Virus record (IMG/VR): IMGVR_UViG_2695420585_000012
Reading direction: 5' to 3' (one strand)
Length of the DNA: 37,418 nt
Source of the DNA: a virus
Lineage: Duplodnaviria; Heunggongvirae; Uroviricota; Caudoviricetes
Below the pieces are notes generated by a model. The model was given only the letters and a program-made list of their open reading frames with translations, was not told where the DNA came from and did no database searches. The first letter of the stretch is position 1; the number at the start of each line of letters is the position of its first letter. Shown piece by piece: positions 21,800-37,418 of this stretch. Position numbers and translations under genes: made by a program.

Positions 21800-23566
21800 A
21801 TGAACACCACACTGACACCCGCAGATCTCGATCCCCGTCGGCAGGCCATGCTGCTGTACTTTCAGGGATACCGCGTAGCCCGCATTGCTGAAATGCTGGG
21901 CGAGAAAGTTGCAACCGTTCACAGCTGGAAAAAACGCGACAAGTGGGGTGACTATGGGCCGCTGGATCAGATGCAGCTCACCACCGCCGCACGCTACTGC
22001 CAGCTCATTATGAAGGAGCACAAAGAAGGGAAAGATTTCAAAGAGATTGACCTGCTGGCGCGCCAGTCGGAGCGCCACGCGCGGATCGGCAAGTTTAACA
22101 ATGGCGGCAACGAAGCCGACTTAAACCCTAACGTCGCCAACCGCAACAAAGGCCCGCGCCGTCAGCCGGAAAAGAATGTTTTCACCGATGAGCAGATTGA
22201 GAAGCTGGAAGAAATCTTCCATTCCTCCATGTTCAACTACCAGCGCCACTGGTGGGAAGCCGGAAAAGCCAACCGCATCCGCAACCTGCTGAAGTCACGC
22301 CAGATCGGCGCGACCTTTTACTTTGCCCGTGAAGCCCTGATTGACGCCCTGCTTACCGGACGTAACCAGATTTTCCTTTCCGCCAGTAAGGCACAGGCCC
22401 ACGTCTTTAAACAGTACATCATCGACTTCGCCAAAGAAGTGGAGGTGGAGCTGAAAGGCGATCCGATGGTGCTTCCCAACGGGGCCACTCTTTACTTCCT
22501 CGGCACCAATGCCCGCACGGCCCAGAGTTACCACGGCAACCTGTATCTGGATGAATATTTCTGGATACCGAAATTCCAGGAGCTGCGCAAAGTGGCTTCC
22601 GGTATGGCTATTCACAAAAAATGGCGACAAACCTATTTTTCCACGCCATCCAGCCTGACCCACAGTGCTTATCCGTTCTGGTCCGGTGCGCTGTTCAACC
22701 GTGGACGCAACAAAGCCGACAAGGTGGACATCGACCTGTCCCATAGCAATCTGGCCCCCGGCCTGCTGTGCGCAGACGGGCAATACCGCCAGATAGTCAC
22801 CGTGGAAGATGCGGTGCGCGGCGGCTGTAACCTGTTCGACCTTGACCAGTTGCGCATGGAGTACAGCCCGGACGAATACCAGAACCTGCTGATGTGCGAG
22901 TTCGTGGACGATCTCGCGTCCGTGTTCCCGCTCAGCGAGCTGCAGGCGTGCATGGTGGACAGCTGGGAAGTCTGGACCGACTTTCATGCTCTGGCCCTGC
23001 GCCCGTTTGGCTGGCGCGAAGTGTGGATCGGTTATGACCCGGCAAAAGGTACGCAGAACGGCGACAGCGCCGGATGCGTGGTGGTGGCACCGCCAGCCGT
23101 GCCGGGCGGTAAGTTTCGCATTCTTGAGCGTCACCAGTGGCGCGGGATGGACTTCCGCGCCCAGGCTGACGCAATCAAAAAACTGACCGAGCAGTACAAC
23201 GTGACCTACATCGGCATCGACTCAACCGGCGTTGGTCACGGGGTTTACGAGAACGTGAAAGCGTTCTTTCCTGCCGTCCGGGAGTTTGTCTACAACCCCA
23301 ACGTTAAAAACGCCCTGGTACTCAAGGCCTACGACATTATCAGCCACCGCCGTCTGGAGTTTGACGCCGGACATACCGACATTGCGCAGTCATTCATGGC
23401 AATCCGTCGCGCCACCACCGCCAGCGGCAACCGCCCGACCTATGAAGCCAGCCGCAGCGAAGAAGCCAGCCATGCCGATCTGGCCTGGGCAACAATGCAC
23501 GCACTGTTTAACGAACCGCTGCAGGGCGAGTCCGCCAATACCAGCAATATTGTGGAGATTTTTTGA
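21800..23566 (+). CDS. P: Terminase large (ATPase) subunit gpP
   Basis: 588-aa ORF, P2 gpP-like; divergent from O and overlapping Q start. Confidence 0.9.
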   Translation: MNTTLTPADLDPRRQAMLLYFQGYRVARIAEMLGEKVATVHSWKKRDKWGDYGPLDQMQLTTAARYCQLIMKEHKEGKDFKEIDLLARQSERHARIGKFNNGGNEADLNPNVANRNKGPRRQPEKNVFTDEQIEKLEEIFHSSMFNYQRHWWEAGKANRIRNLLKSRQIGATFYFAREALIDALLTGRNQIFLSASKAQAHVFKQYIIDFAKEVEVELKGDPMVLPNGATLYFLGTNARTAQSYHGNLYLDEYFWIPKFQELRKVASGMAIHKKWRQTYFSTPSSLTHSAYPFWSGALFNRGRNKADKVDIDLSHSNLAPGLLCADGQYRQIVTVEDAVRGGCNLFDLDQLRMEYSPDEYQNLLMCEFVDDLASVFPLSELQACMVDSWEVWTDFHALALRPFGWREVWIGYDPAKGTQNGDSAGCVVVAPPAVPGGKFRILERHQWRGMDFRAQADAIKKLTEQYNVTYIGIDSTGVGHGVYENVKAFFPAVREFVYNPNVKNALVLKAYDIISHRRLEFDAGHTDIAQSFMAIRRATTASGNRPTYEASRSEEASHADLAWATMHALFNEPLQGESANTSNIVEIF

Positions 23567-24603
23567 TGGGAAAGAGTAAGAAAAACCGCGCTGCGGCGAC
23601 GAATCAGATCCAGTATAAAAAACAAACTTCAGCCGAAGCATTCAGCTTCGGTGATCCCGTTCCTGTTCTGGACCGCCGCGAATTACTGGACTATGTGGAA
23701 TGCGTACAGATGGACCGCTGGTACGAGCCACCCGTAAGTTTTGACGGACTGGCGCGAACATTCCGCGCCGCCGTACACCACAGTTCACCAATTGCAGTGA
23801 AATGCAACATTCTGACCAGTACCTACATCCCTCACCCGCTGCTCAGCCAGCAGGCTTTTTCACGTTTTGTGCAGGACTATCTGGTATTTGGTAACGCCTA
23901 CCTGGAGAAACGCACGAACCGCTTCGGTGAAGTTATCGCCCTTGAACCTGCCCTGGCAAAATACACCCGACGCGGATTAGACCTGGATACCTACTGGTTT
24001 GTGCAATACGGCATGACCACGCAACCGTATCAGTTCACGAAAGGCAGCATTTTTCACCTGATGGAACCGGACATCAACCAGGAGATCTACGGCCTGCCCG
24101 GTTATCTTTCTGCCATTCCGTCAGCCCTGCTCAACGAGTCCGCCACGCTGTTCCGCCGAAAGTATTACATTAACGGCAGTCATGCTGGCTTCATCATGTA
24201 CATGACCGATGCTGCGCAGAACCAGGAGGATGTGAACAACCTCCGCAACGCAATGAAAAGCGCCAAAGGTCCAGGCAACTTCCGCAACCTGTTTATGTAC
24301 TCACCTAACGGCAAAAAGGATGGTCTTCAGATTATCCCGTTGTCAGAAGTCGCGGCAAAGGATGAATTTCTGAACATCAAAAATGTTAGTCGCGATGACA
24401 TGATGGCCGCGCATCGTGTTCCGCCACAGATGATGGGGATTATGCCGAATAATGTTGGGGGTTTTGGGGATGTGGAGAAGGCTAGTCTTGTATTTGTTCG
24501 CAATGAATTGATGCCACTACAGAAGCGACTACATGAACTAAACGAATGGGTGGGTGCAGAAGTAATACATTTTGATGACTATGTTTTAGGTGTTCAGGAA
24601 TAA
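23563..24603 (+). CDS. Q: Portal protein gpQ
   Basis: 346-aa ORF, P2 gpQ-like. Confidence 0.9.
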   Translation: MMGKSKKNRAAATNQIQYKKQTSAEAFSFGDPVPVLDRRELLDYVECVQMDRWYEPPVSFDGLARTFRAAVHHSSPIAVKCNILTSTYIPHPLLSQQAFSRFVQDYLVFGNAYLEKRTNRFGEVIALEPALAKYTRRGLDLDTYWFVQYGMTTQPYQFTKGSIFHLMEPDINQEIYGLPGYLSAIPSALLNESATLFRRKYYINGSHAGFIMYMTDAAQNQEDVNNLRNAMKSAKGPGNFRNLFMYSPNGKKDGLQIIPLSEVAAKDEFLNIKNVSRDDMMAAHRVPPQMMGIMPNNVGGFGDVEKASLVFVRNELMPLQKRLHELNEWVGAEVIHFDDYVLGVQE

Positions 24604-24649: not shown

Positions 24650-24988
24650 TTAACAAACAGCGTATAAACCATCAAATCCAACGGAATGAACCTTTTTTGA
24701 TGCTACTTCATTGCTACGGCGTTGGATCACTTTTGCAATACTTTTTAAAATTGAAGGGGATGCATTGCGAACCTTAACCTGACTCAAAACTTTGGTTACA
24801 CCGAATTTCACTACCAAAACACCAAAGATTTCATCAGAGTATGATTCTGAAATTGAATAAACACCGCTCAGGTCTAAATCTACGGTATACCCTTCTTTAA
24901 TGAACCCTTCAATCTTGTGTCGTTGGGGGATAGCCTGATTGCGCGAAGCCAGGTCACCCTCGGGTAACTTGTATGCGATTTTGTTCAT
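24650..24988 (-). CDS. STAS-like (anti-sigma-factor-antagonist-like) small protein, cargo
   Basis: 112-aa ORF whose start overlaps the stop of the upstream ATPase gene; central DLSGV...SISESYSDEIFGVL segment resembles STAS/DUF4325-type domains (recalled, not searched). Confidence 0.45.
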   Translation of the reverse strand: MNKIAYKLPEGDLASRNQAIPQRHKIEGFIKEGYTVDLDLSGVYSISESYSDEIFGVLVVKFGVTKVLSQVKVRNASPSILKSIAKVIQRRSNEVASKKVHSVGFDGLYAVC

Positions 24989-25962
24989 TACTCTCCTCCT
25001 AACGCCCGCATTATTTCCATAAGCTGAGGGTCATTTTCTTCGCTATCTTTATCGACTGCCAGTTCATGAATCTTAAAACGGCAAGAAATTGCTACACCCG
25101 GCCATTCAGTACGTAATTCAGTATAGCTCACTTCATCACCTATTGCTTCTAAGCATACATTTCCTGAAGCCAGTTGCAATTCCCCATTATATGTTTTTAT
25201 CAATTTCATCAAGTGATATAACCCAAGCCCTTGATGATTATTATCTTTTTCTTTGACCGAAACCCCGTGACCAAACACACTACCCCCAATAAAATCCTGG
25301 GGAAGTTGCTGTGCCCAATCATCCTGCAAATCAGCATGCTTAGATGAATGTCCCTCTTGAATACACCATGCGATCGCATCCTGGTGAGTCTCAATTCCGG
25401 GTATACCAGCTCGCCGCAATTCTCGGAGAAATCCTAACCCACAGTCCGCCAAAGAAAATTCTAAATAGTGCTCTTTTCTTTGTGTGTGGGGTACAGCCGA
25501 ACGTTGTGCAAAAGAAAAACCCGTTGATTTTCCATGCGACCAAACGTTATCGTGAAGCTCACCTATAACATGTGTTAGATCTGTAAGTCCCTTGGGATAA
25601 TCTCTCGGATCACGATCAGGGAATGTTAACTGCCTTACACAACTGTTAATACTACCAGTGGCAACGTCAACAGCTTCAACATTGGTTAATGCTGTAACCA
25701 AACTGTAATTTCTCCCAACATTTACACGTTCCTGTTGATACTGATCCTCGCCCCATAAAGCACCATGTAAATTGATAGCTCGCATATAGTCAGGGCATGA
25801 CAAAACGCAGTTATCTTCGGTAATTTTGTGATGATTCACGTAAGCTGCTAAGACAGTGATAAAACCAGGATGCCAATGGTTGTTTGGCAATTGCAATTCA
25901 TTAGTTTCCTTTTGATGAAACGCAGCGGTATGCACAATAGCGTCTTTTAATCCTAACCCCAT
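24988..25962 (-). CDS. GHKL/Bergerat-fold ATPase (histidine-kinase-like, RsbW/SpoIIAB-type) with N-terminal extension, cargo
   Basis: Visible N-box ELHDNVWSH, G1 box DCGLG and G2 box GLGLYHL; lower GC than structural genes. Confidence 0.6.
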   Translation of the reverse strand: MGLGLKDAIVHTAAFHQKETNELQLPNNHWHPGFITVLAAYVNHHKITEDNCVLSCPDYMRAINLHGALWGEDQYQQERVNVGRNYSLVTALTNVEAVDVATGSINSCVRQLTFPDRDPRDYPKGLTDLTHVIGELHDNVWSHGKSTGFSFAQRSAVPHTQRKEHYLEFSLADCGLGFLRELRRAGIPGIETHQDAIAWCIQEGHSSKHADLQDDWAQQLPQDFIGGSVFGHGVSVKEKDNNHQGLGLYHLMKLIKTYNGELQLASGNVCLEAIGDEVSYTELRTEWPGVAISCRFKIHELAVDKDSEENDPQLMEIMRALGGE

Positions 25963-26294: not shown

Positions 26295-27464
26295 TTACCA
26301 ATCCATGTTTGCGGCATTATCCATCTCACGAGTTAAGTAATTAACAAATAAGTCCATATTCCTTTCTGATTTCATCGCCTCCGCATAGGTTCCATTAGTT
26401 ACGTAAGATAGTATTAAAGGACATCCAGATTCAATATAAATTTTTGCTGGGGACAGTTCTCCCTGCCACAAATTTTCAAGAAAATCGTTAATTAATTGCA
26501 TTGCTTCAGGTGCCAAAAAATGCACACCATTTCCAAACTTGAAACGTTCTTTATTTTCTCGATGAGGCAGCAATAGTGGCACAGCCCCTACACTTGAGTG
26601 AAATTCCAATGCTTGCCCATCCTTACCGAAGGCGCCATGGGCTACAAAATTACGCACCTGTTTTCTGAGTATAAGTAAACGATCATAGAACAATTTTAGA
26701 CTGGAAGAGTTAATATCAATGGCTAATTTGAATTTCTCCCCCCATTCTTTTCCAACTTTATCAGCCACATCATTCCCATTTTTTATCTCACCCTTCAAGA
26801 TTGCAATAAGAATGAAAACATGCTCGGTCCAATTGAAAAATGACTCAATTGCAGACGTTGCTAACCACATAGCCTCTCTTCGGAGTTCAATTATCTTATT
26901 TGATTGTTCAAAAGTGGATTGTAACAGGCTGAAAAAATTATCAGACTTAAACTCACTATCAACTTCCAGTTTAGACTCTTGGCCAGCAGCAACTTCATCA
27001 AGCTTCTGTTTATATAGCTCTAAAAAATAGCAAAACCTATCATAAAGAGAATTAGCATTGTTATTAACATTTAGATTTGAAGTCTTTGCTGCATTGTCTG
27101 CAAGCGAGTCAAAAAAATTCGTAGCAGCTTTAACCCCTGCGCAAATATGTCTCAAAACAGTTTTAGCTTGCTCTATATCATCATCACTCTTGATAAATAT
27201 ATCTAAACCAAGTTTACGATGTTCTATAATTACGACAGTCCCATCAATCCGGACTGGGATAGAAAAAGAAATCTTCTCATCAACCCCACGATTTTTAAAT
27301 TTCAGTAAATCTACCAAAAGAAAATAAACGAGATAATACGGAGGTAATGAGTCTCCCAAACCCGAGCGCTTACCCCAAAAATATTCATCAAGCTCGGCAG
27401 ACTCCATTGTCCCTATGACTCTTCGGACGCGTTCTTCAACTTTAGCCAGATCCATTCCCCACAC
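26295..27464 (-). CDS. Hypothetical cargo protein with HEPN-like RNxxxH motif (possible Abi-type RNase)
   Basis: 389-aa AT-rich ORF between the SOS-regulated small gene and cos; motif ILRKQVRNFVAHG. Confidence 0.55.
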   Translation of the reverse strand: MWGMDLAKVEERVRRVIGTMESAELDEYFWGKRSGLGDSLPPYYLVYFLLVDLLKFKNRGVDEKISFSIPVRIDGTVVIIEHRKLGLDIFIKSDDDIEQAKTVLRHICAGVKAATNFFDSLADNAAKTSNLNVNNNANSLYDRFCYFLELYKQKLDEVAAGQESKLEVDSEFKSDNFFSLLQSTFEQSNKIIELRREAMWLATSAIESFFNWTEHVFILIAILKGEIKNGNDVADKVGKEWGEKFKLAIDINSSSLKLFYDRLLILRKQVRNFVAHGAFGKDGQALEFHSSVGAVPLLLPHRENKERFKFGNGVHFLAPEAMQLINDFLENLWQGELSPAKIYIESGCPLILSYVTNGTYAEAMKSERNMDLFVNYLTREMDNAANMDW

Positions 27465-27625
27465 CGCCTTTCAATATCACTTAAGGTATTACAGCCAATG
27501 ACATCGATTAAATACAGCGTAGATAATAGGCAACTTGCTACTGTTTTCAAGGGCTTTCTGTTTCAATCCTTAGTTGACCTTGCTGACGCGAGAATCTAGT
27601 TCTCACGCCAGCAACGCCCCTGCTG

Positions 27626-27814
27626 CTAACCGAGAAGATCCATTACACGGTTATATTCATGGGCACGAATTTTCGCCATCAACTCATCAGTCAGCTCTGA
27701 AACCCACTGCAGAGCCAGCCCCTTCTCTTCATCACTACACTCACTAGCCGCTACAAGCTTAAGAAAAAAATCAATGCGCTGGAGCTTCAAAGACTCCAAA
27801 AAATAGTCCTGCAT
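27626..27814 (-). CDS. Small SOS-regulated protein, possible Tum-like antirepressor
   Basis: 62-aa ORF from the internal ATG with GGAGG Shine-Dalgarno; LexA box in the promoter; the 96-aa track ORF would begin upstream of the operator. Confidence 0.5.
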   Translation of the reverse strand: MQDYFLESLKLQRIDFFLKLVAASECSDEEKGLALQWVSELTDELMAKIRAHEYNRVMDLLG

Positions 27815-27856
27815 TTTTCCTCCTATGACACCACAAGCAATACTGTATGCATAACC

Positions 27857-27872
27857 ACTGTTTATATTTACA
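27857..27872 (-). promoter_or_regulatory. LexA box (SOS operator) overlapping a putative promoter
   Basis: CTGT-TTATATTT-ACAG matches CTGT-N8-ACAG with AT-rich spacer; minus strand has TTTACA, 17 nt, TACTGT around it. Confidence 0.6.
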
Positions 27873-27967
27873 GTATATAATAATCTTACTGATGTAAAAC
27901 GTTTTTTTACGTTCATCAGCCTGATATGCCTGGTATTATTAAGAGCACGAATTGTTAATCCGCGTAA

Positions 27968-30382
27968 TTAATACAGGTTCCGCCACTTATCATCTTCCCA
28001 CAAACGCTGGTTCCGATAGAAGATACGCAAGCCTGCTCCTGACGGAATACTGCCGCCGCGAAGGAGTAAATCGACCTCTTTCTCGCTGCCATCAAATCCT
28101 CTGGACTTCAGCTCATAGACGAGCTGCAGTCGCTGATGGTCTGTAATTCGCTGTTTGTAGTCTTTACGCCGTTTCGGTTTAACCAGGCGTAACCTTGCTG
28201 CCAGTTCCCGGCGCTCTTTTTTGCTCATACTGTGCAGGTAATCGTGCAACTCCTTGTCATCCATGCGGGTAATGTCCGTTCTGGTGTCCCCATCAGCTGA
28301 TTTATCTTTCTCCTGTTGGTTCAAATTTTCAGCAAGGGGACAGTTATTGCCACGAGTCCAAGGGGCGCAAGCGCCCTGGTCGGCTGCCGCCTCCTGAACG
28401 TCAACGGCTTTACGAACCATTTTCCACTTCACTGCATGAGTGCAGATCTTGCCCTCTGCAATGGGTGACCAGATGCCATAAATACGAATGCCGTGATCGC
28501 CATAGGCGGTCGGCTCTTCGTTGATTTCATAAGCGGTTCTGATGAGGTGATATTTACGGGGAACCAGTACGCCGCCCTGCTTCATGATGTAGGTGGCAAA
28601 ACAACCAGCATCAGCAGCAGCCAGAATGGCATCAAGACGCGGGTTATCCAGTACCGGCACACCTGCTTTTTTGTCACCCTGTTGCCTTGCCGCCTGACCA
28701 GCCAGCAAGCGAAGTTCACGGTAAGCCTGACGCCCCGGAATACCAAAGAAGCGGAATTGCTGAACACGATGCAGAGACGCCCAGGCATTCACGTATTCAG
28801 CGTTATCACGCAGAGATTTACCCGTTTCCTTGCTGATCTCGCCAGCCAGACCACGACCGTCAATGTTCTTACTGATATATTTCGCGATGTAGCTTGTCGG
28901 CGTTCCTTTGCGCGGGTTAATCAACTCAGACTTAAAGCGCGGCCCAGTGTTATTGCCCAGCTCCTCGCGGTCTTCACGGATGGCAAACTTACGCAGTAAT
29001 GCAGTGATGGCACGGCGGTCTTTTTTGCGCATGAAACACAACAGGTGCCAGTGAACTGTGCCATCATGATGCGGCTCAGCCACCCGCACGCCATACCAGC
29101 GCAACCCGGCTTTGTGCATCGCCTTACGAAATGCAGCAAACATGCCGACCAGATAATCGCTGCTTTGTCTTACCGTCGCGTTTGTCCAGGTCGGGTTTGG
29201 TCTGCCGTTATTTAGCGTGGAATGGAAACGCGACGGACAGGTGATAGTGTAGAAAACGGCGCAGTCACCGCGCATTTCCGCGATAAGCTCCAGACCTTTA
29301 ACACAGGCCATCATCTCATTGCGGCGATGCGCAGGGTTGCTGCTGCTGGCGTTTACCACATCCTCCATGTCCAGCGTGTCGCCGTCTTCGTGCACCAGTT
29401 CATGAGAACGGAAAAACTCCAGCGACTTACGGCGCTGCTCACGTTTATGCATCACGGCTTCATAGCTGACATAAGGAGATGCTTTTTTGCTGACCAGGCA
29501 AACAGCGCGCAACTGCTCTTCCCGCCATTCGCAACGCATCTTCCATAATTTCCGATACCACCAGTCGGCGCACAACATACGCGCCAGCGAACCCGGAATG
29601 AGTTCATAGGGCACGGGTTTACGGCGGTTTCTTTTCCGACGGAGTTGCTCAAACGCAGGTGGGATGACATCCAGACGCAGGGTTTCCGCTGCCACCTTTT
29701 CCCATGTCTTGCGGATTTCTTCTGGCTTAACGTCATCGGTGGCATACAAATCACCACAAGCTGCATCAAGGCACATACTCATATGCGCAGCTACCAGGGT
29801 GGACAGGCGTTTCACCTGATCCTGACTCATTTCAGGCAGGATCAGCAGGCCGTCCAGCCCTTCATGGCTTGCCATAAAGCGAAAAGATGCAGATAGCTGA
29901 CTGTCGCGTACATGCTCCAGTCGTTCCAGACATGGCTTAATCGTCTCACGTAAATAGCGGGAATAAGCCTTTGGCCTGCCCAGGCTGCTGAAGTATTCAA
30001 TACGTTGCATCAGCGGCTTGCTGATATGGGAAGGCTGGGCGTTGACGTCCGCCAGAATGACCATGTCTGAATTAAAACGCTGCTGCTCATGCGCCAGCTT
30101 TGCCCGGCTAATGAGCTTATCCTGCTCCATTTCGCGCTGGACAGGATCACGTGATTCATTAAAGAAATAACGCTCCCAGACCTGATCACTCAGTGCCTCG
30201 CGGCGCAACTGTTCCTGCTCGTTATCGGCAGCGTACAGAGTGATCAGGTTTGAAAGCGTAGAAACCGGCGCAACTTCCGCCGGGTCCAGATAAGGGTTAA
30301 TGGCCTTTTTCGGGCTGTTCCATGAGAATGCTGCGGCAGCCTCGTTAAAGCCGCAGCAGTTGTTCATATCGGCATGACTCAT
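27968..30382 (-). CDS. A: Replication initiation protein gpA (rolling-circle nickase)
   Basis: 804-aa ORF, P2 gpA-like size and early-operon position. Confidence 0.85.
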
Positions 30383-33125: not shown

Positions 33126-34082
33126 ATGTCAACACACAAAATCACATTTCGCCATGTTGATGATGCAATGAAAACTGTAATCATGCAGAATCGTGGAGGA
33201 CAACAGGTCATTGACCGAATTTTGAAAGCTTATGGCTTCACTTCACGTCAAGCATTCTGTAACCACTTAGGGATATCCCAAAGCACAATGGCGAACAGAT
33301 ATGCTCGTGATACCTTCCCTGCCGACTGGGTCATAATCTGCAGCATGGAAACTGGCGTGTCGGTTGAATGGTTGGCATTTGGTACCGATAACACAGTAGA
33401 GGCTGTCACACATAATACAGAACAGAACCACCATAAAGATGGTAAGGAGATTCATTCTCTCACTTTAGACACAAAATCCCCAAATGAGAACAATACTCAC
33501 CGAAAGAACGAGAGCCTCATTGAGGTTAATCAAGGAGGAAAAGCGGCAATCGAGCGAATAGTTATCGCCTATGGATTTAAGACAAGGCAAGCTCTAGCGG
33601 ATCACATTGGTGTTTCAAAAAGCACATTAGCCAATCGTTACATGAGAGATACCTTTCCAGCTGATTGGATCATCCAGTGCGCACTTGAAACCGGAGCTTC
33701 ATTAATGTGGCTAACAACCGGTAATGGTCCTGTCTTTGAAGACGCTAAGAGCGATATTATTGCTATCACACGGAAAAAAGTTATAAATGGTATGTTGTTT
33801 GATACAAATTATCTCCCTTTTGATAAAACCATGTTACCCAGCAAGGTGAAAAAACCCATATCTATAGTAGATGAAGGAAATGTATATCTTGCAGACAAAG
33901 CATTTGATGAAGTAACCGATGGAAAATGGTTAGTTGAAATCGAAGGAAAATTTAGTGTTAGAGATCTAACCAGAATTCCAATTGCAAAAGTAAAAGTATC
34001 TAATGAAAGTACAACTTTTGAATGTCTATTAGCGGATATTAATGTAATAGCAAAATGTTTTGGTATATATAAGGATATTTAA
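33126..34082 (+). CDS. CI-like immunity repressor with duplicated N-terminal domain
   Basis: 318-aa ORF; two ~62-aa repeats each with an AYGF...ANRY.RDTFPADW...ETG...WL.G pattern, ~58% identical to each other, then a C-terminal domain; resemblance to 186 CI is from memory. Confidence 0.7.
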   Translation: MSTHKITFRHVDDAMKTVIMQNRGGQQVIDRILKAYGFTSRQAFCNHLGISQSTMANRYARDTFPADWVIICSMETGVSVEWLAFGTDNTVEAVTHNTEQNHHKDGKEIHSLTLDTKSPNENNTHRKNESLIEVNQGGKAAIERIVIAYGFKTRQALADHIGVSKSTLANRYMRDTFPADWIIQCALETGASLMWLTTGNGPVFEDAKSDIIAITRKKVINGMLFDTNYLPFDKTMLPSKVKKPISIVDEGNVYLADKAFDEVTDGKWLVEIEGKFSVRDLTRIPIAKVKVSNESTTFECLLADINVIAKCFGIYKDI

Positions 34083-34865
34083 ATGACAGACCTTCCTAAC
34101 AATGAAGAGATGCTTCTTTATGCCAAAAGGAACCTTGAGTTTTTCATTAAAACATTCTACTTACACTTTTATTCTGACATTGAGTTATTGCAAGCCCCAG
34201 CTCAACCTGAAACAGAAGAACAACGACTGAAACGCTTAATATCCGAAAAAGAGAGTTTCTTTCAATCTGGCTTGGTAATACTTTTTAATTCTGCTGAAAT
34301 ATATCTAAAGTCTATAATTGCTGAGCATAGTGTTTATTTACTTTTAAAAGAAGTAAAAGACTGCTATAAAAACAAATCTTTTTTCGAATGTTCAACATTA
34401 GACGCAACCGAACTACATAGAATAGCACAAAGTATCAGTGGGCGAAATCTTTCACCGCGCTTTAATGAAATTTATGATATTTTGCGCAAAGAAAGAAATA
34501 AAGTAATTCACTTAGGTAAAAGTAATAATAAAGAAATACGTAAAGACTTTTTAAGTGCATTTCTAATTTTTCGAGAGGAGATATATCAAGAGCCTCTTAA
34601 TAACCTGGTTCATTGCTTGATAAATGATAAAAACATGCCTGAACAAAAATTAGTCGAGGCAAAGAAAAACTATGCAGCAAGCATTATAGACATGATGAAA
34701 ATATTTTTTCCTTTAGATGATATTTTAGCCAACATATATAAGATTGATGGAAAACCGAAAAATTGGAATGTTTGTACTAATTGTCAAACTCCGGGGAAAA
34801 CACTCGCCGTCATATCTAAAACTAAATCAATTTGCTTATCATGTGATTTTAAAATAGGATTGTAA
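34083..34865 (+). CDS. Hypothetical cargo protein with HEPN-like RNxxxH motif and C-terminal CxxC...CxxC ribbon
   Basis: 260-aa AT-rich ORF starting immediately after the repressor stop; motif ILRKERNKVIHLG; C-terminal CTNCQ...CLSCD. Confidence 0.55.
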   Translation: MTDLPNNEEMLLYAKRNLEFFIKTFYLHFYSDIELLQAPAQPETEEQRLKRLISEKESFFQSGLVILFNSAEIYLKSIIAEHSVYLLLKEVKDCYKNKSFFECSTLDATELHRIAQSISGRNLSPRFNEIYDILRKERNKVIHLGKSNNKEIRKDFLSAFLIFREEIYQEPLNNLVHCLINDKNMPEQKLVEAKKNYAASIIDMMKIFFPLDDILANIYKIDGKPKNWNVCTNCQTPGKTLAVISKTKSICLSCDFKIGL

Positions 34866-34867
34866 AC

Positions 34868-35938
34868 ATGGAAAACTTAAAATACATACCTTTTAATCAA
34901 GTAGATTTTTCTGATGTTTTTTTTGACTCTTTAAAATCCGATTATGCTCATGGGTTTATTGATTGGTTCCATTCTAAATGTAAATCAAATGATTATGCAT
35001 ATGTCCTTTATGATGAACAAAATAAAATTGATGGTTTTTTGTATCTAAAAACAGAAGTAGGTATCATTGAAGATACAAAACCAAATATTCCTGATGGTAT
35101 TCATCTAAAAGTTGGAACATTTAAATTTAATCCAAAAGGAACTCTTCGTGGTCAACGATTTTTAAAAAAAATATTCGATCACGCTCTAGATAATAATGCT
35201 AACAATATATATGTGACTGTTTTTGAAAAACATGACTACTTAATTAGACTATTCAAAATCTATGGCTTTATAGATATTGGAGTAAAAGAATCTGAAAATG
35301 GTGTAGAGCGAGTACTAATAAAAGAAATGAATAGTAATGCTCTTACGGGCGATATACTGTCAGATTATCCATTTATTAATAACAGAGGCAGTGAAAATAA
35401 ATTCTTGCTTTCAATATACCCCGTATTTCATACTCGTTTATTCCCTGACTCAAAATTAATTACAGAGTCACCAGACGTTGTTGCTGATGTATCATATGCA
35501 AATAGCATTAGAAAAGTATATATTTGTGGCATGTCAGATGTTGAATTAATGAAGCCAAACGATATAATCGTTATATACCGAACATCCGATAATCAAGGGC
35601 CTGCATATTACCGTTCTGTTGCTACTTCTTTATGTGTAGTAGAAAAAGTTAGAAATATAAACTCTTTCGTTACAGAGAAAGAATTTCTAAATTACTGTTC
35701 TAGATATTCTGTTTTTACAGAATCTGAGCTTAAAAGTTTTTATAGAACAAAAAAATACCCATATATTATAAGCTTTACATATAACCTTGCTTTGCCCAAA
35801 AGACTAAATCGTGCTAAACTTATTTCTGAAGTAGGATTATCCCCGCGAGCTTACTGGGGGATCATGAAGTTAACAAACGAACAGTTTAATAGCATTATTA
35901 AACTTGGTGGCGTCAATGAAAGTATTATTGTCAATTAA
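34868..35938 (+). CDS. Hypothetical cargo protein, possible GNAT-like N-terminal domain
   Basis: 356-aa AT-rich ORF 2 nt after the preceding stop; segment GTFKFNPKGTLRGQRFLKKIFDHAL...YGFIDIG loosely resembles a GNAT acetyl-CoA-binding region; C-terminal half unassigned. Confidence 0.45.
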   Translation: MENLKYIPFNQVDFSDVFFDSLKSDYAHGFIDWFHSKCKSNDYAYVLYDEQNKIDGFLYLKTEVGIIEDTKPNIPDGIHLKVGTFKFNPKGTLRGQRFLKKIFDHALDNNANNIYVTVFEKHDYLIRLFKIYGFIDIGVKESENGVERVLIKEMNSNALTGDILSDYPFINNRGSENKFLLSIYPVFHTRLFPDSKLITESPDVVADVSYANSIRKVYICGMSDVELMKPNDIIVIYRTSDNQGPAYYRSVATSLCVVEKVRNINSFVTEKEFLNYCSRYSVFTESELKSFYRTKKYPYIISFTYNLALPKRLNRAKLISEVGLSPRAYWGIMKLTNEQFNSIIKLGGVNESIIVN

Positions 35939-36287
35939 CCCAGAGCATGTAGAAAAAATCCTTAATGGAACAAAGAAATTTGAATTCCGAAAAGGAATTT
36001 TCAAAAAACCGGATGTAAAATCTGTGGTTATTTATTCAACAATGCCTGTCGGTAAAGTTGTTGCTGAATTTGACATTGCAGATGTTATAGAAGACAAGCC
36101 AAGTATTGTATGGGAAAAAACAAGCCAATACGCAGGTATCAGCAAACAATTTTTTGACTCATATTTTCATAGCAAAGAAAAAGCCTTTGCTATAGAAATT
36201 GGCAATCTAAAAATCTATGATCAACCGCTTCATCTAAGTTCATTAGGTGATAACATAACGGCCCCGCAATCATATCGGTACTTATGA
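35916..36287 (+). CDS. ASCH-domain (PUA-like) protein, cargo
   Basis: About 123 aa from MKVLLSINPEHVEKILNGTKKFEFRK, matching the ASCH hallmark GxKxxExR as in E. coli YqfB; overlaps the end of the preceding gene. Confidence 0.6.
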   Translation: MKVLLSINPEHVEKILNGTKKFEFRKGIFKKPDVKSVVIYSTMPVGKVVAEFDIADVIEDKPSIVWEKTSQYAGISKQFFDSYFHSKEKAFAIEIGNLKIYDQPLHLSSLGDNITAPQSYRYL

Positions 36288-36365
36288 TGTATGTAACCTC
36301 AAGCATCATACATTGACACTGGTTATACATACAGTAAAAATGCTCTCCACTGGAGGGCATTTTTT

Positions 36366-37418
36366 ATGGCAGTACGAAAACTCACCACAGGAAAATGGCT
36401 TTGCGAATGTTACCCCGCCGGACGCAGTGGGCGTCGTGTGCGTAAACAATTCGCCACCAAAGGCGAAGCACTGGCTTTTGAGCGCCACACGATGGAAGAA
36501 ACCGAAGCAAAGCCCTGGCTGGGTGAATCAGTGGATCGTCGAACACTGAAAGACGTGGTTGAGCTATGGTTCAAACTACATGGTAAATCTCTGACAGCTG
36601 GGCAGCATGTCTATGACAAATTGCTGTTGATGGTTGACGCTCTGGGCAATCCTCTTGCAACCGATCTCACCTCTAAAATGTTTGCCCACTATCGAGATAA
36701 ACGCCTGACAGGCGAGATCTACTTCAGCGAGAAATGGAAGAAAGGAGCAAGCCCGGTCACCATTAACCTGGAGCAAAGCTATCTAAGTAGTGTTTTTAGC
36801 GAACTATCCCGTCTGGGCGAATGGTCGTATCCGAACCCACTGGAGAACATGCGAAAATTCACCATCGCAGAAAAAGAGATGGCATGGCTTACCCATGAGC
36901 AGATTGTTGAATTGCTGGCTGATTGCAAACGTCAGGACCCAATTCTGGCACTGGTAGTTAAGATATGCTTAAGCACAGGCGCACGCTGGCGTGAAGCCGT
37001 AAATCTTACCCGCTCACAGGTGACCAAATACCGAATTACCTTTGTCAGAACGAAGGGGAAGAAAAACAGAAGCATCCCTATCAGTAAAGAGCTTTACGAA
37101 GAGATCATGGCGCTTGATGGGTTCAATTTCTTCACAGACTGCTATTTTCAATTTTTATCCGTGATGGAAAAAACGTCTATCGTGCTCCCTCGCGGTCAAC
37201 TCACACACGTTCTGCGCCATACGTTTGCGGCGCACTTCATGATGTCGGGTGGAAACATTCTGGCCTTACAAAAAATTCTCGGACACCACGATATAAAAAT
37301 GACTATGCGTTACGCACATCTGGCACCGGATCATCTAGAAACGGCGCTCCGTTTCAATCCTCTGGCAACGCTGCCAAGTGGCGACAAAGTGGCGGCAGCG
37401 GTTGGCATTACCCCGTAA
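36366..37418 (+). CDS. int: Tyrosine integrase (P2 Int family)
   Basis: 350-aa ORF with conserved C-terminal R...HxxR...Y catalytic region (LSTGARWREA, HVLRHTFAAHF, RYAHL); stop codon is the last 3 nt of the window. Confidence 0.9.
   Translation: MAVRKLTTGKWLCECYPAGRSGRRVRKQFATKGEALAFERHTMEETEAKPWLGESVDRRTLKDVVELWFKLHGKSLTAGQHVYDKLLLMVDALGNPLATDLTSKMFAHYRDKRLTGEIYFSEKWKKGASPVTINLEQSYLSSVFSELSRLGEWSYPNPLENMRKFTIAEKEMAWLTHEQIVELLADCKRQDPILALVVKICLSTGARWREAVNLTRSQVTKYRITFVRTKGKKNRSIPISKELYEEIMALDGFNFFTDCYFQFLSVMEKTSIVLPRGQLTHVLRHTFAAHFMMSGGNILALQKILGHHDIKMTMRYAHLAPDHLETALRFNPLATLPSGDKVAAAVGITP

Follow-up and report, generated by a model that had tools for sequence, protein, structure and literature searches.

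In the present work, we have analysed a 37,418-nucleotide (nt) stretch of viral DNA (Caudoviricetes; IMG/VR record IMGVR_UViG_2695420585_000012), the whole of which is referred to below as the window, with emphasis on a short segment of its minus strand that follows the phage replication gene A and contains a LexA box, a promoter and a gene for a protein of 62 amino acids (aa). Our analyses indicate that this element is very probably the SOS induction module of a 186-like P2-family prophage of Escherichia coli, of the type represented by Fels-2 and DuoHS, in which a LexA-repressed antirepressor, Tum, acts on the immunity repressor CI. In the undamaged cell, LexA would be bound to an operator that covers both the -10 hexamer of the tum promoter and the beginning of the transcribed region, and the gene would be silent; upon DNA damage, RecA would become active, LexA would undergo self-cleavage and the tum promoter would fire. 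The 62-residue helical-hairpin Tum would then accumulate and inactivate the 186-type CI by binding rather than by cleavage, upon which the early lytic promoter would be released and the prophage would enter lytic growth. The LexA/Tum switch itself is already known, being textbook material for 186 and genetically tested in the near-identical prophage DuoHS, and for this reason the mechanism opens no new question. The value of the present assignment is one of annotation: DNA-damaging agents, among them quinolones and mitomycin C, should induce the prophage, and the "hypothetical protein" which follows gene A in about one-fifth of the complete E. coli genomes, and which is still unnamed in PHROG 698 and RefSeq, is very probably the Tum antirepressor.

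The small gene, tum (tumA-type), occupies positions 27626..27814 of the minus strand, with its ATG at 27814 and its stop codon at 27626, and encodes the 62-aa protein MQDYFLESLKLQRIDFFLKLVAASECSDEEKGLALQWVSELTDELMAKIRAHEYNRVMDLLG. All elements of its control region are located on the same strand. On the coding strand they follow one another in the order TTTACA, 17 nt, TACTGTAAATATAAACAGTGGTTATGCATACAGTA (27875-27841), 17 nt, GGAGG, 4 nt and the ATG at 27814. The first of these, the -35 hexamer (27893..27898), was read directly from the sequence and matches the consensus at 5 of 6 positions. The -10 hexamer TACTGT (27870..27875), which is located 17 nt from it, is at the same time the left half of LexA box 1, the coding-strand 20-mer TACTGTAAATATAAACAGTG (27856..27875; core 27858-27873), and the ribosome-binding site GGAGG is found at 27819..27823, 4 nt before the ATG. 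LexA box 1 overlaps the core promoter in that it contains the -10 hexamer, the promoter being identified by sequence and conservation only. A generic promoter scan of the region did not pick up the tum promoter, because TACTGT fits TATAAT at only 3 of 6 positions, and Rfam yielded no match over 27300-28000. The original prediction had described a consensus LexA box overlapping a plausible -35/-10 pair and situated about 45-60 bp upstream of a 62-aa open reading frame (ORF) with a GGAGG ribosome-binding site; this description is upheld (the core lies 44-59 nt before the ATG), with the strand corrected to minus.

The sequence CTGTTTATATTTACAG at 27858-27873 is the sole instance of CTGT-N8-ACAG within the 37.4-kb window. 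When the site was scored with a LexA weight matrix, as had been suggested together with the original prediction, the 20-mer 27856-27875 proved to be the top site of the window with 23.8 bits, although both the scores of this matrix, which is based on E. coli sites, and the heterology-like index of the site (about 4.4) are approximate. Dinucleotide shuffling of the whole window, repeated 200 times, never reached this score, the best shuffle giving 22.3, and the box agrees with the consensus TACTGTATATATATACAGTA at 17 of 20 positions.

The conservation of this operator was examined in a scan with one genome per species, which covered the genera Escherichia, Citrobacter, Enterobacter, Klebsiella, Raoultella, Kluyvera, Lelliottia, Leclercia, Buttiauxella, Serratia, Pantoea, Erwinia, Tatumella, Izhakiella, Dryocola and others and recovered 36 loci of the tum-like gene, and in 39 distinct upstream regions of orthologous genes aligned with MAFFT, Salmonella being among the genera represented. 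Columns conserved in at least 90% of the 39 upstream regions are confined to an A-run with TT.AC (the -35 hexamer), TATACTGT, A..CAGT, and AGG.AA followed by the ATG, whereas the leader and the spacers of both promoter and box are variable and bear indels. The half-sites CTGT and ACAG are fixed in nearly all of these divergent promoters around a variable spacer, and in every locus with a complete upstream region, which together represent at least 15 genera, the best upstream site is a strong LexA box (15-28 bits). This pattern is the footprint expected of a promoter that is occluded by LexA. Once context and conservation are weighed, the operator upstream of the 62-aa gene is confirmed at the sequence level as real and far beyond chance.

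The same alignment bears on the reading frame. A longer ORF of 96 aa (ATG at 27916), which is reported by some gene callers and would span both promoter and operator, was rejected; it is unsupported because upstream indels have lengths not divisible by three, whereas the 62-aa frame has a conserved ribosome-binding site and ATG, and it is this shorter version that is annotated in RefSeq. The replication gene A (27968..30382, minus strand), a member of the P2 GPA family (Pfam Phage_GPA, 5.6e-127), directly adjoins the tum promoter on its upstream side, and nearly all of the related loci likewise have gene A ahead of the small gene. The slot between gene A and the portal gene (23563-24603) at the cos end is equivalent in position to that of tum in 186. 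Within a base of 5426 complete E. coli genomes, 1101 (about 20%) carry the end of gene A, the promoter and the small gene, and the module of the window is 100% identical to that of E. coli strains S43 and EA7.

By profile comparison, the 62-aa protein is remotely homologous to the half of 186 Tum that is responsible for antirepression and not to the DinI half. Among the PHROGs families, the protein matches phrog_698 ("unknown function"; 4e-36), phrog_8554 (3.7e-8) and phrog_1993 (0.0025), the last of which is the family of PSP3 TumA; the N-terminal 67 residues of 186 Tum match phrog_1993 (1.8e-23), phrog_8554 (3e-12) and phrog_698 (5.9e-6, with residues 7-44 placed on positions 7-44 of the profile). 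A direct comparison by hhalign was made between 26 diverse relatives of the 62-aa protein and the Tum N-terminal family (residues 1-63 of 186 Tum, 14 stand-alone Tum relatives and PSP3 TumA). It returned a probability of 95.9% and an E value of 5.3e-9, with residues 4-43 aligned onto 4-43 in the same register and Cys26 common to both, and it is at this profile level that the alignment of the small protein to Tum envisaged in the original prediction has been obtained. In the AlphaFold model, the protein folds into a hairpin of two helices (2-23 and 28-61), with a predicted local distance difference test (pLDDT) score of 90. A Foldseek search of this model against the Protein Data Bank (PDB) retrieved generic or designed helical hairpins only, all with E above 1, and no solved homologue. 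Neither Pfam nor PADLOC contains anything for the protein, and an NCBIfam match to MafI was dismissed as sub-threshold (E 0.029). A profile search of 1.84 billion representatives yielded 87 small relatives and zero Tum-DinI fusions, and this search provides no bridge to 186 by itself.

The presumed target of Tum, as judged from its domains, is the CI of the window, a 186-type immunity repressor of 318 aa that is encoded on the plus strand (33126..34082) and matches Phage_CI_repr twice (9.6e-58) and Phage_CI_C (7.2e-31). It differs from the CI proteins of DuoHS and 186, which consist of 189-192 aa, in having two Phage_CI_repr helix-turn-helix (HTH) domains in tandem. Over residues 132-318, its identity is 47% to DuoHS CI and 36% to 186 CI. 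The window also encodes a CP76-type CII and a 186-like Int, and from these two proteins and the domains of CI it follows that the switch is of the 186 type rather than the P2 type, in agreement with the earlier view of the prophage as 186-like.

A number of points weigh against the above reading. The motif CTGT-N8-ACAG alone proves nothing, because 0.52 matches per window are expected by chance and 41 of 100 shuffles contain at least one. BLASTP and tblastn comparisons of the 62-aa protein with 186 Tum and PSP3 TumA gave no alignment, and the homology to Tum consequently rests on profiles over 40 residues. The genetic requirement for tum and for a cleavable LexA is carried over by analogy from the 92% identical orthologue of DuoHS and not from the prophage in the window. 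Finally, the two prophages share 92% identity in Tum and only 47% in CI, and the window CI has one more HTH domain at its N-terminus; for the window prophage, the inference is weakest at this point, where a near-invariant Tum is coupled to a divergent CI.

This last point gives rise to the alternative that survives best, although we consider it unlikely, viz. that the gene is regulated by LexA and makes Tum, but that Tum is ineffective on the divergent CI of its own prophage or has its main effect in trans, on further 186-type prophages in the same cell. For Gifsy and Fels-1, the induction of heteroimmune prophages by antirepressors acting in trans has been documented (PMC3121763), and if one near-invariant Tum acts on many heteroimmune CIs, cross-induction among co-resident P2-family prophages is a possibility. 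However, in our reading of the alignment of residues 132-318, the HTH domain of the window CI is visibly better conserved with DuoHS than is the C-terminal part, and a conserved binding surface for Tum is therefore plausible. Further, the tum gene and its LexA box are maintained as an intact module beside gene A in approximately 1100 E. coli genomes alongside many cargo variants, which suggests selection within each phage. It is less probable again that the gene encodes a small SOS-induced protein with another role (modulation of RecA or LexA, a toxin, or an exclusion factor) and that the prophage is induced by some other route. Such a role would be compatible with the lack of any curated family or solved structure matching the protein (in Pfam, PADLOC, NCBIfam above threshold, or the PDB by Foldseek) and with its listing in databases as a "hypothetical protein", but deletion of the 92% identical orthologue blocks induction and leaves the SOS reporter unimpaired (PMC12055606), and the protein is related at the profile level to the antirepressor half of Tum and not to its DinI half. 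That the LexA-like sequence is a chance AT-rich palindrome before a promoter outside SOS control is so improbable that it can be set aside, for although the bare motif is readily produced by shuffling, the 20-mer score is not, CTGT and ACAG are retained in nearly all 39 divergent promoters, the architecture is that of the 186 p95 and PSP3 tumA promoters, and lexA(Ind-) blocks the induction of DuoHS, which has the same operator. In preference to these alternatives, we infer that LexA occupies the operator in the window and that the Tum made under its control acts on the resident CI.

The operator on tum probably consists of two overlapping LexA boxes rather than one, to judge from the sequence adjoining box 1. 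LexA box 2, CAGTGGTTATGCATACAGTA (27841..27860, minus strand; core 27843-27858), is weaker, with a weight-matrix score of 14.4-14.5, and has one base pair in common with box 1. The two 16-bp cores (27858-27873 and 27843-27858) are offset by 15 nt, which fits the layout of the double overlapping SOS operators of colicin type, and a box 2 at exactly this offset scores above 13 bits in 24 scanned loci, mostly of Enterobacteriaceae. Less favourable to a second box are its low score of 14.5, the presence of GTGG where CTGT is expected, and the Erwiniaceae relatives, in which box 2 is missing and a single box is located nearer to the ATG. Colicin operators of the double type are reported to bind two LexA dimers cooperatively, resulting in tight repression and late induction (PMC2994835). 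The promoters of colicin and cloacin genes resemble that of tum both in their two 16-bp boxes with one common base pair and in that the product under control kills the producing cell; they differ in that the boxes of the bacteriocin promoter are located downstream of a separate -10 hexamer, whereas in tum the -10 hexamer is inside box 1. By analogy with these promoters, two LexA dimers probably bind cooperatively at the tum operator, and a double operator of this kind would impose tight repression and late induction upon a gene that commits the cell to lysis. No report of two-dimer LexA binding at any tum promoter was found in the literature searched.

A search with the 43-nt operator of Fels-2 as query matched 1204 plasmid records. 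The one plasmid that was examined, a 9.3-kb ColRNAI plasmid (our locus L041), contains TACTGTATATAAAACCAGTGGTTATATGTACAGTA at 1503-1537, just upstream of a colicin-like tRNase/cloacin-type bacteriocin gene, which is followed by immunity and lysis genes. Over 35 nt, the identity to this cloacin-type operator is 29/35 for the window and 32/35 for Fels-2. As a separate observation, the tum operator of Fels-2 type is nearly the same 35-nt sequence as the cloacin/colicin double SOS operator, and both shared ancestry and convergence on LexA binding are possible explanations for this similarity.

Our analyses have also identified a second LexA-like box on the plus strand of the window (36313..36341), which consists of the 20-mer CACTGGTTATACATACAGTA (36317-36336) with the core CTGGTTATACATACAG (36319-36334). 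It is positioned between a perfect TTGACA (36313-36318) and a weak -10 hexamer, about 30 nt upstream of the integrase gene int (36366-37418, plus strand), and its score on the approximate matrix, 23.8, equals that of the tum box. The box is identical in E. coli HS; in phage 813R9 CTGG..ACAG is kept and the spacer is changed. The region containing it is present in 885-998 of the 5426 E. coli genomes. In the window, three cargo genes are situated between cI and int (34083-36287, plus strand), of which two encode proteins of 260 aa and 356 aa without a Pfam match and the third a 127-aa protein with an ASCH domain; because of this insertion, int is separated from the cI transcript. In 186, where cI and int overlap, there is for that reason no equivalent int promoter.

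The position of this box suggests that expression of int is controlled by the SOS response, which we offer as a lead and not as a finding. No paper describing a LexA-like int promoter was found in the literature searched, nor was a description found there of either a double tum operator or a LexA-controlled int in P2-family phages. It is tentatively proposed, as a possibility that falls somewhat short of an even chance, that the prophage has an SOS regulon of its own with two nodes, viz. a colicin-type double operator on tum and a LexA-controlled int promoter. If this were true, tum would be repressed very tightly and the commitment to lysis would come late and in a threshold-like manner, and the int node would make integrase available for excision after damage only, in phages that carry cargo between int and cI. 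The colicin-like double operator, the LexA-like box at int and the coupling of a near-invariant Tum to divergent CI repressors are three side observations that would, if borne out, refine the picture of how induction and excision are timed in the P2 family.

Directly after the stop codon of tum, the minus strand can form a stem-loop (27580..27614) with a 15-bp stem and no U tract, for which the minimum free energy is -33.1 kcal/mol (z -4.35; 0/200 shuffles). The hairpin recurs in four loci lacking dinI (L051, L006, L008 and L040), in which the stem bases differ and still pair, and in a Tatumella locus (L028) it is located after dinI. Because of this recurrence with compensating stem bases and its place after dinI, the hairpin looks like a 3'-end element of the SOS transcript; it is a probable 3'-end element of the tum transcript in the window, on the basis of its sequence, and may serve as a non-canonical terminator or as a stabiliser of the RNA 3' end. 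Beyond it, a sequence that is promoter-like by consensus match only, TTGAAA-16-TATTAT (27523..27550, minus strand; 10 of 12 positions), precedes a 389-aa cargo gene (26295..27464, minus strand) that is without family assignment and belongs to the variable region which extends from tum to the portal gene.

The original prediction had raised the possibility that this 389-aa gene is linked to the SOS response by read-through. Such read-through has a precedent in 186, where transcription of tum continues through a partial terminator into orf97. In the window, nothing positive was found for the linkage, and the strong hairpin together with the separate promoter-like site intervenes and argues mildly against it; on balance, we lean towards independent expression of the 389-aa gene. 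The gene is found at the tum locus in 10 E. coli genomes only. Its product belongs to a family of approximately 1000 unnamed proteins with invariant R271, N272 and H276 (an Rx4H pattern, HEPN-like); a match to Csx1_HEPN is sub-threshold, and a fold search was uninformative. A homologue of 61% identity follows hsdS-hsdR (type I restriction) in a Klebsiella integrase island; the 389-aa gene is a candidate for a defence function within the variable region of P2. Beside the portal gene, a further cargo pair is present at 24650-25962 (minus strand). One of its products has 324 aa and shows a weak HATPase_c-like match (phrog_3364); the other, a DUF4325 STAS-like protein of 112 aa, gives a weak PADLOC match to part of DrmA.

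Comparison with known systems places the module of the window within a series of related arrangements. In logic, it resembles the systems of Gifsy and Fels-1 (GfoA, GftA) and of N15 (AntC), in which a small antirepressor under the control of LexA binds a repressor that is not cleavable (PMC3121763); no sequence relationship to GfoA, GftA or AntC was found, and in Gifsy the gene order is reversed, with dinI first. In sequence and gene order, it is related to 186, in which Tum is reported to bind CI and prevent its binding to the operator (Shearwin et al. 1998, as cited in PMC3121763). The GenBank record of 186 gives for p95 a -35 hexamer TTCACA, the counterpart of TTTACA in the window, a -10 hexamer TACTGT and a LexA site starting at the -10. 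As in the window, TACTGT serves as both the -10 hexamer and the left half of the LexA box, tum is located between gene A and the right end of the genome, and CI belongs to the same Pfam families. The two differ in several respects: the 186 record has a single LexA site and no matching second box, 186 Tum is a protein of 146 aa with a fused DinI-like C-terminal half whereas the window protein corresponds to the N-terminal part alone, and in 186 the tum operon includes orf97 behind the partial terminator t95a. PSP3 shares with the window a short stand-alone antirepressor gene (TumA, 60 aa), which stands behind a LexA box after gene A and has the same promoter layout. Its TumA belongs to the phrog_1993 subfamily, whereas the window protein belongs to phrog_698, and PSP3 also possesses TumB (DinI), which the window lacks. 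In both Fels-2 and PSP3 tum is split in two, and it is the upstream gene of PSP3 that carries the antirepressor activity (PMC3121763).

The closest relatives of the module are those of DuoHS and Fels-2. The Tum of DuoHS, a prophage of E. coli HS, is the product of ECHS_RS04495, a 189-nt gene annotated as encoding a "hypothetical protein" and located between a replication endonuclease gene and a DinI-like gene; it is identical to the window protein at 57 of 62 positions, and its operator differs at a few bases only. In-frame deletion of tum in DuoHS, or a lexA(Ind-) background, abolishes induction and lysis by mitomycin C (PMC12055606). The published deletion primers NHR24 and NHR28 flank exactly the 62-aa ORF and, together with the locus tag ECHS_RS04495, identify the gene that was deleted (PMC12055606). 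The Fels-2 counterpart, STM2728, shares 93% identity with the window protein and is followed by a gene of the DinI family that carries the annotation TumB-like. Taken together with the profile homology, these identities bear out the proposal that a Tum-type antirepressor is present under a LexA operator in the slot equivalent to that of 186. Both prophages share with the window the position of tum after gene A, the promoter with its double LexA operator and the 186-type switch. In DuoHS and Fels-2, a DinI-like gene of the tumB type follows about 10 nt after tum and is itself followed by an orf97-like gene, whereas in the window the hairpin and unrelated cargo are found instead, and no DinI-like sequence is present anywhere in the window. 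The last five residues of the window protein differ from those of Fels-2 and DuoHS Tum because the break in homology falls inside the 3' end of the gene, near 27638. Among 38 related loci, dinI is located directly after the small gene in approximately 22 and is not in approximately 14, and the DinI-like partner is an accessory feature of these modules which is not needed for antirepression.

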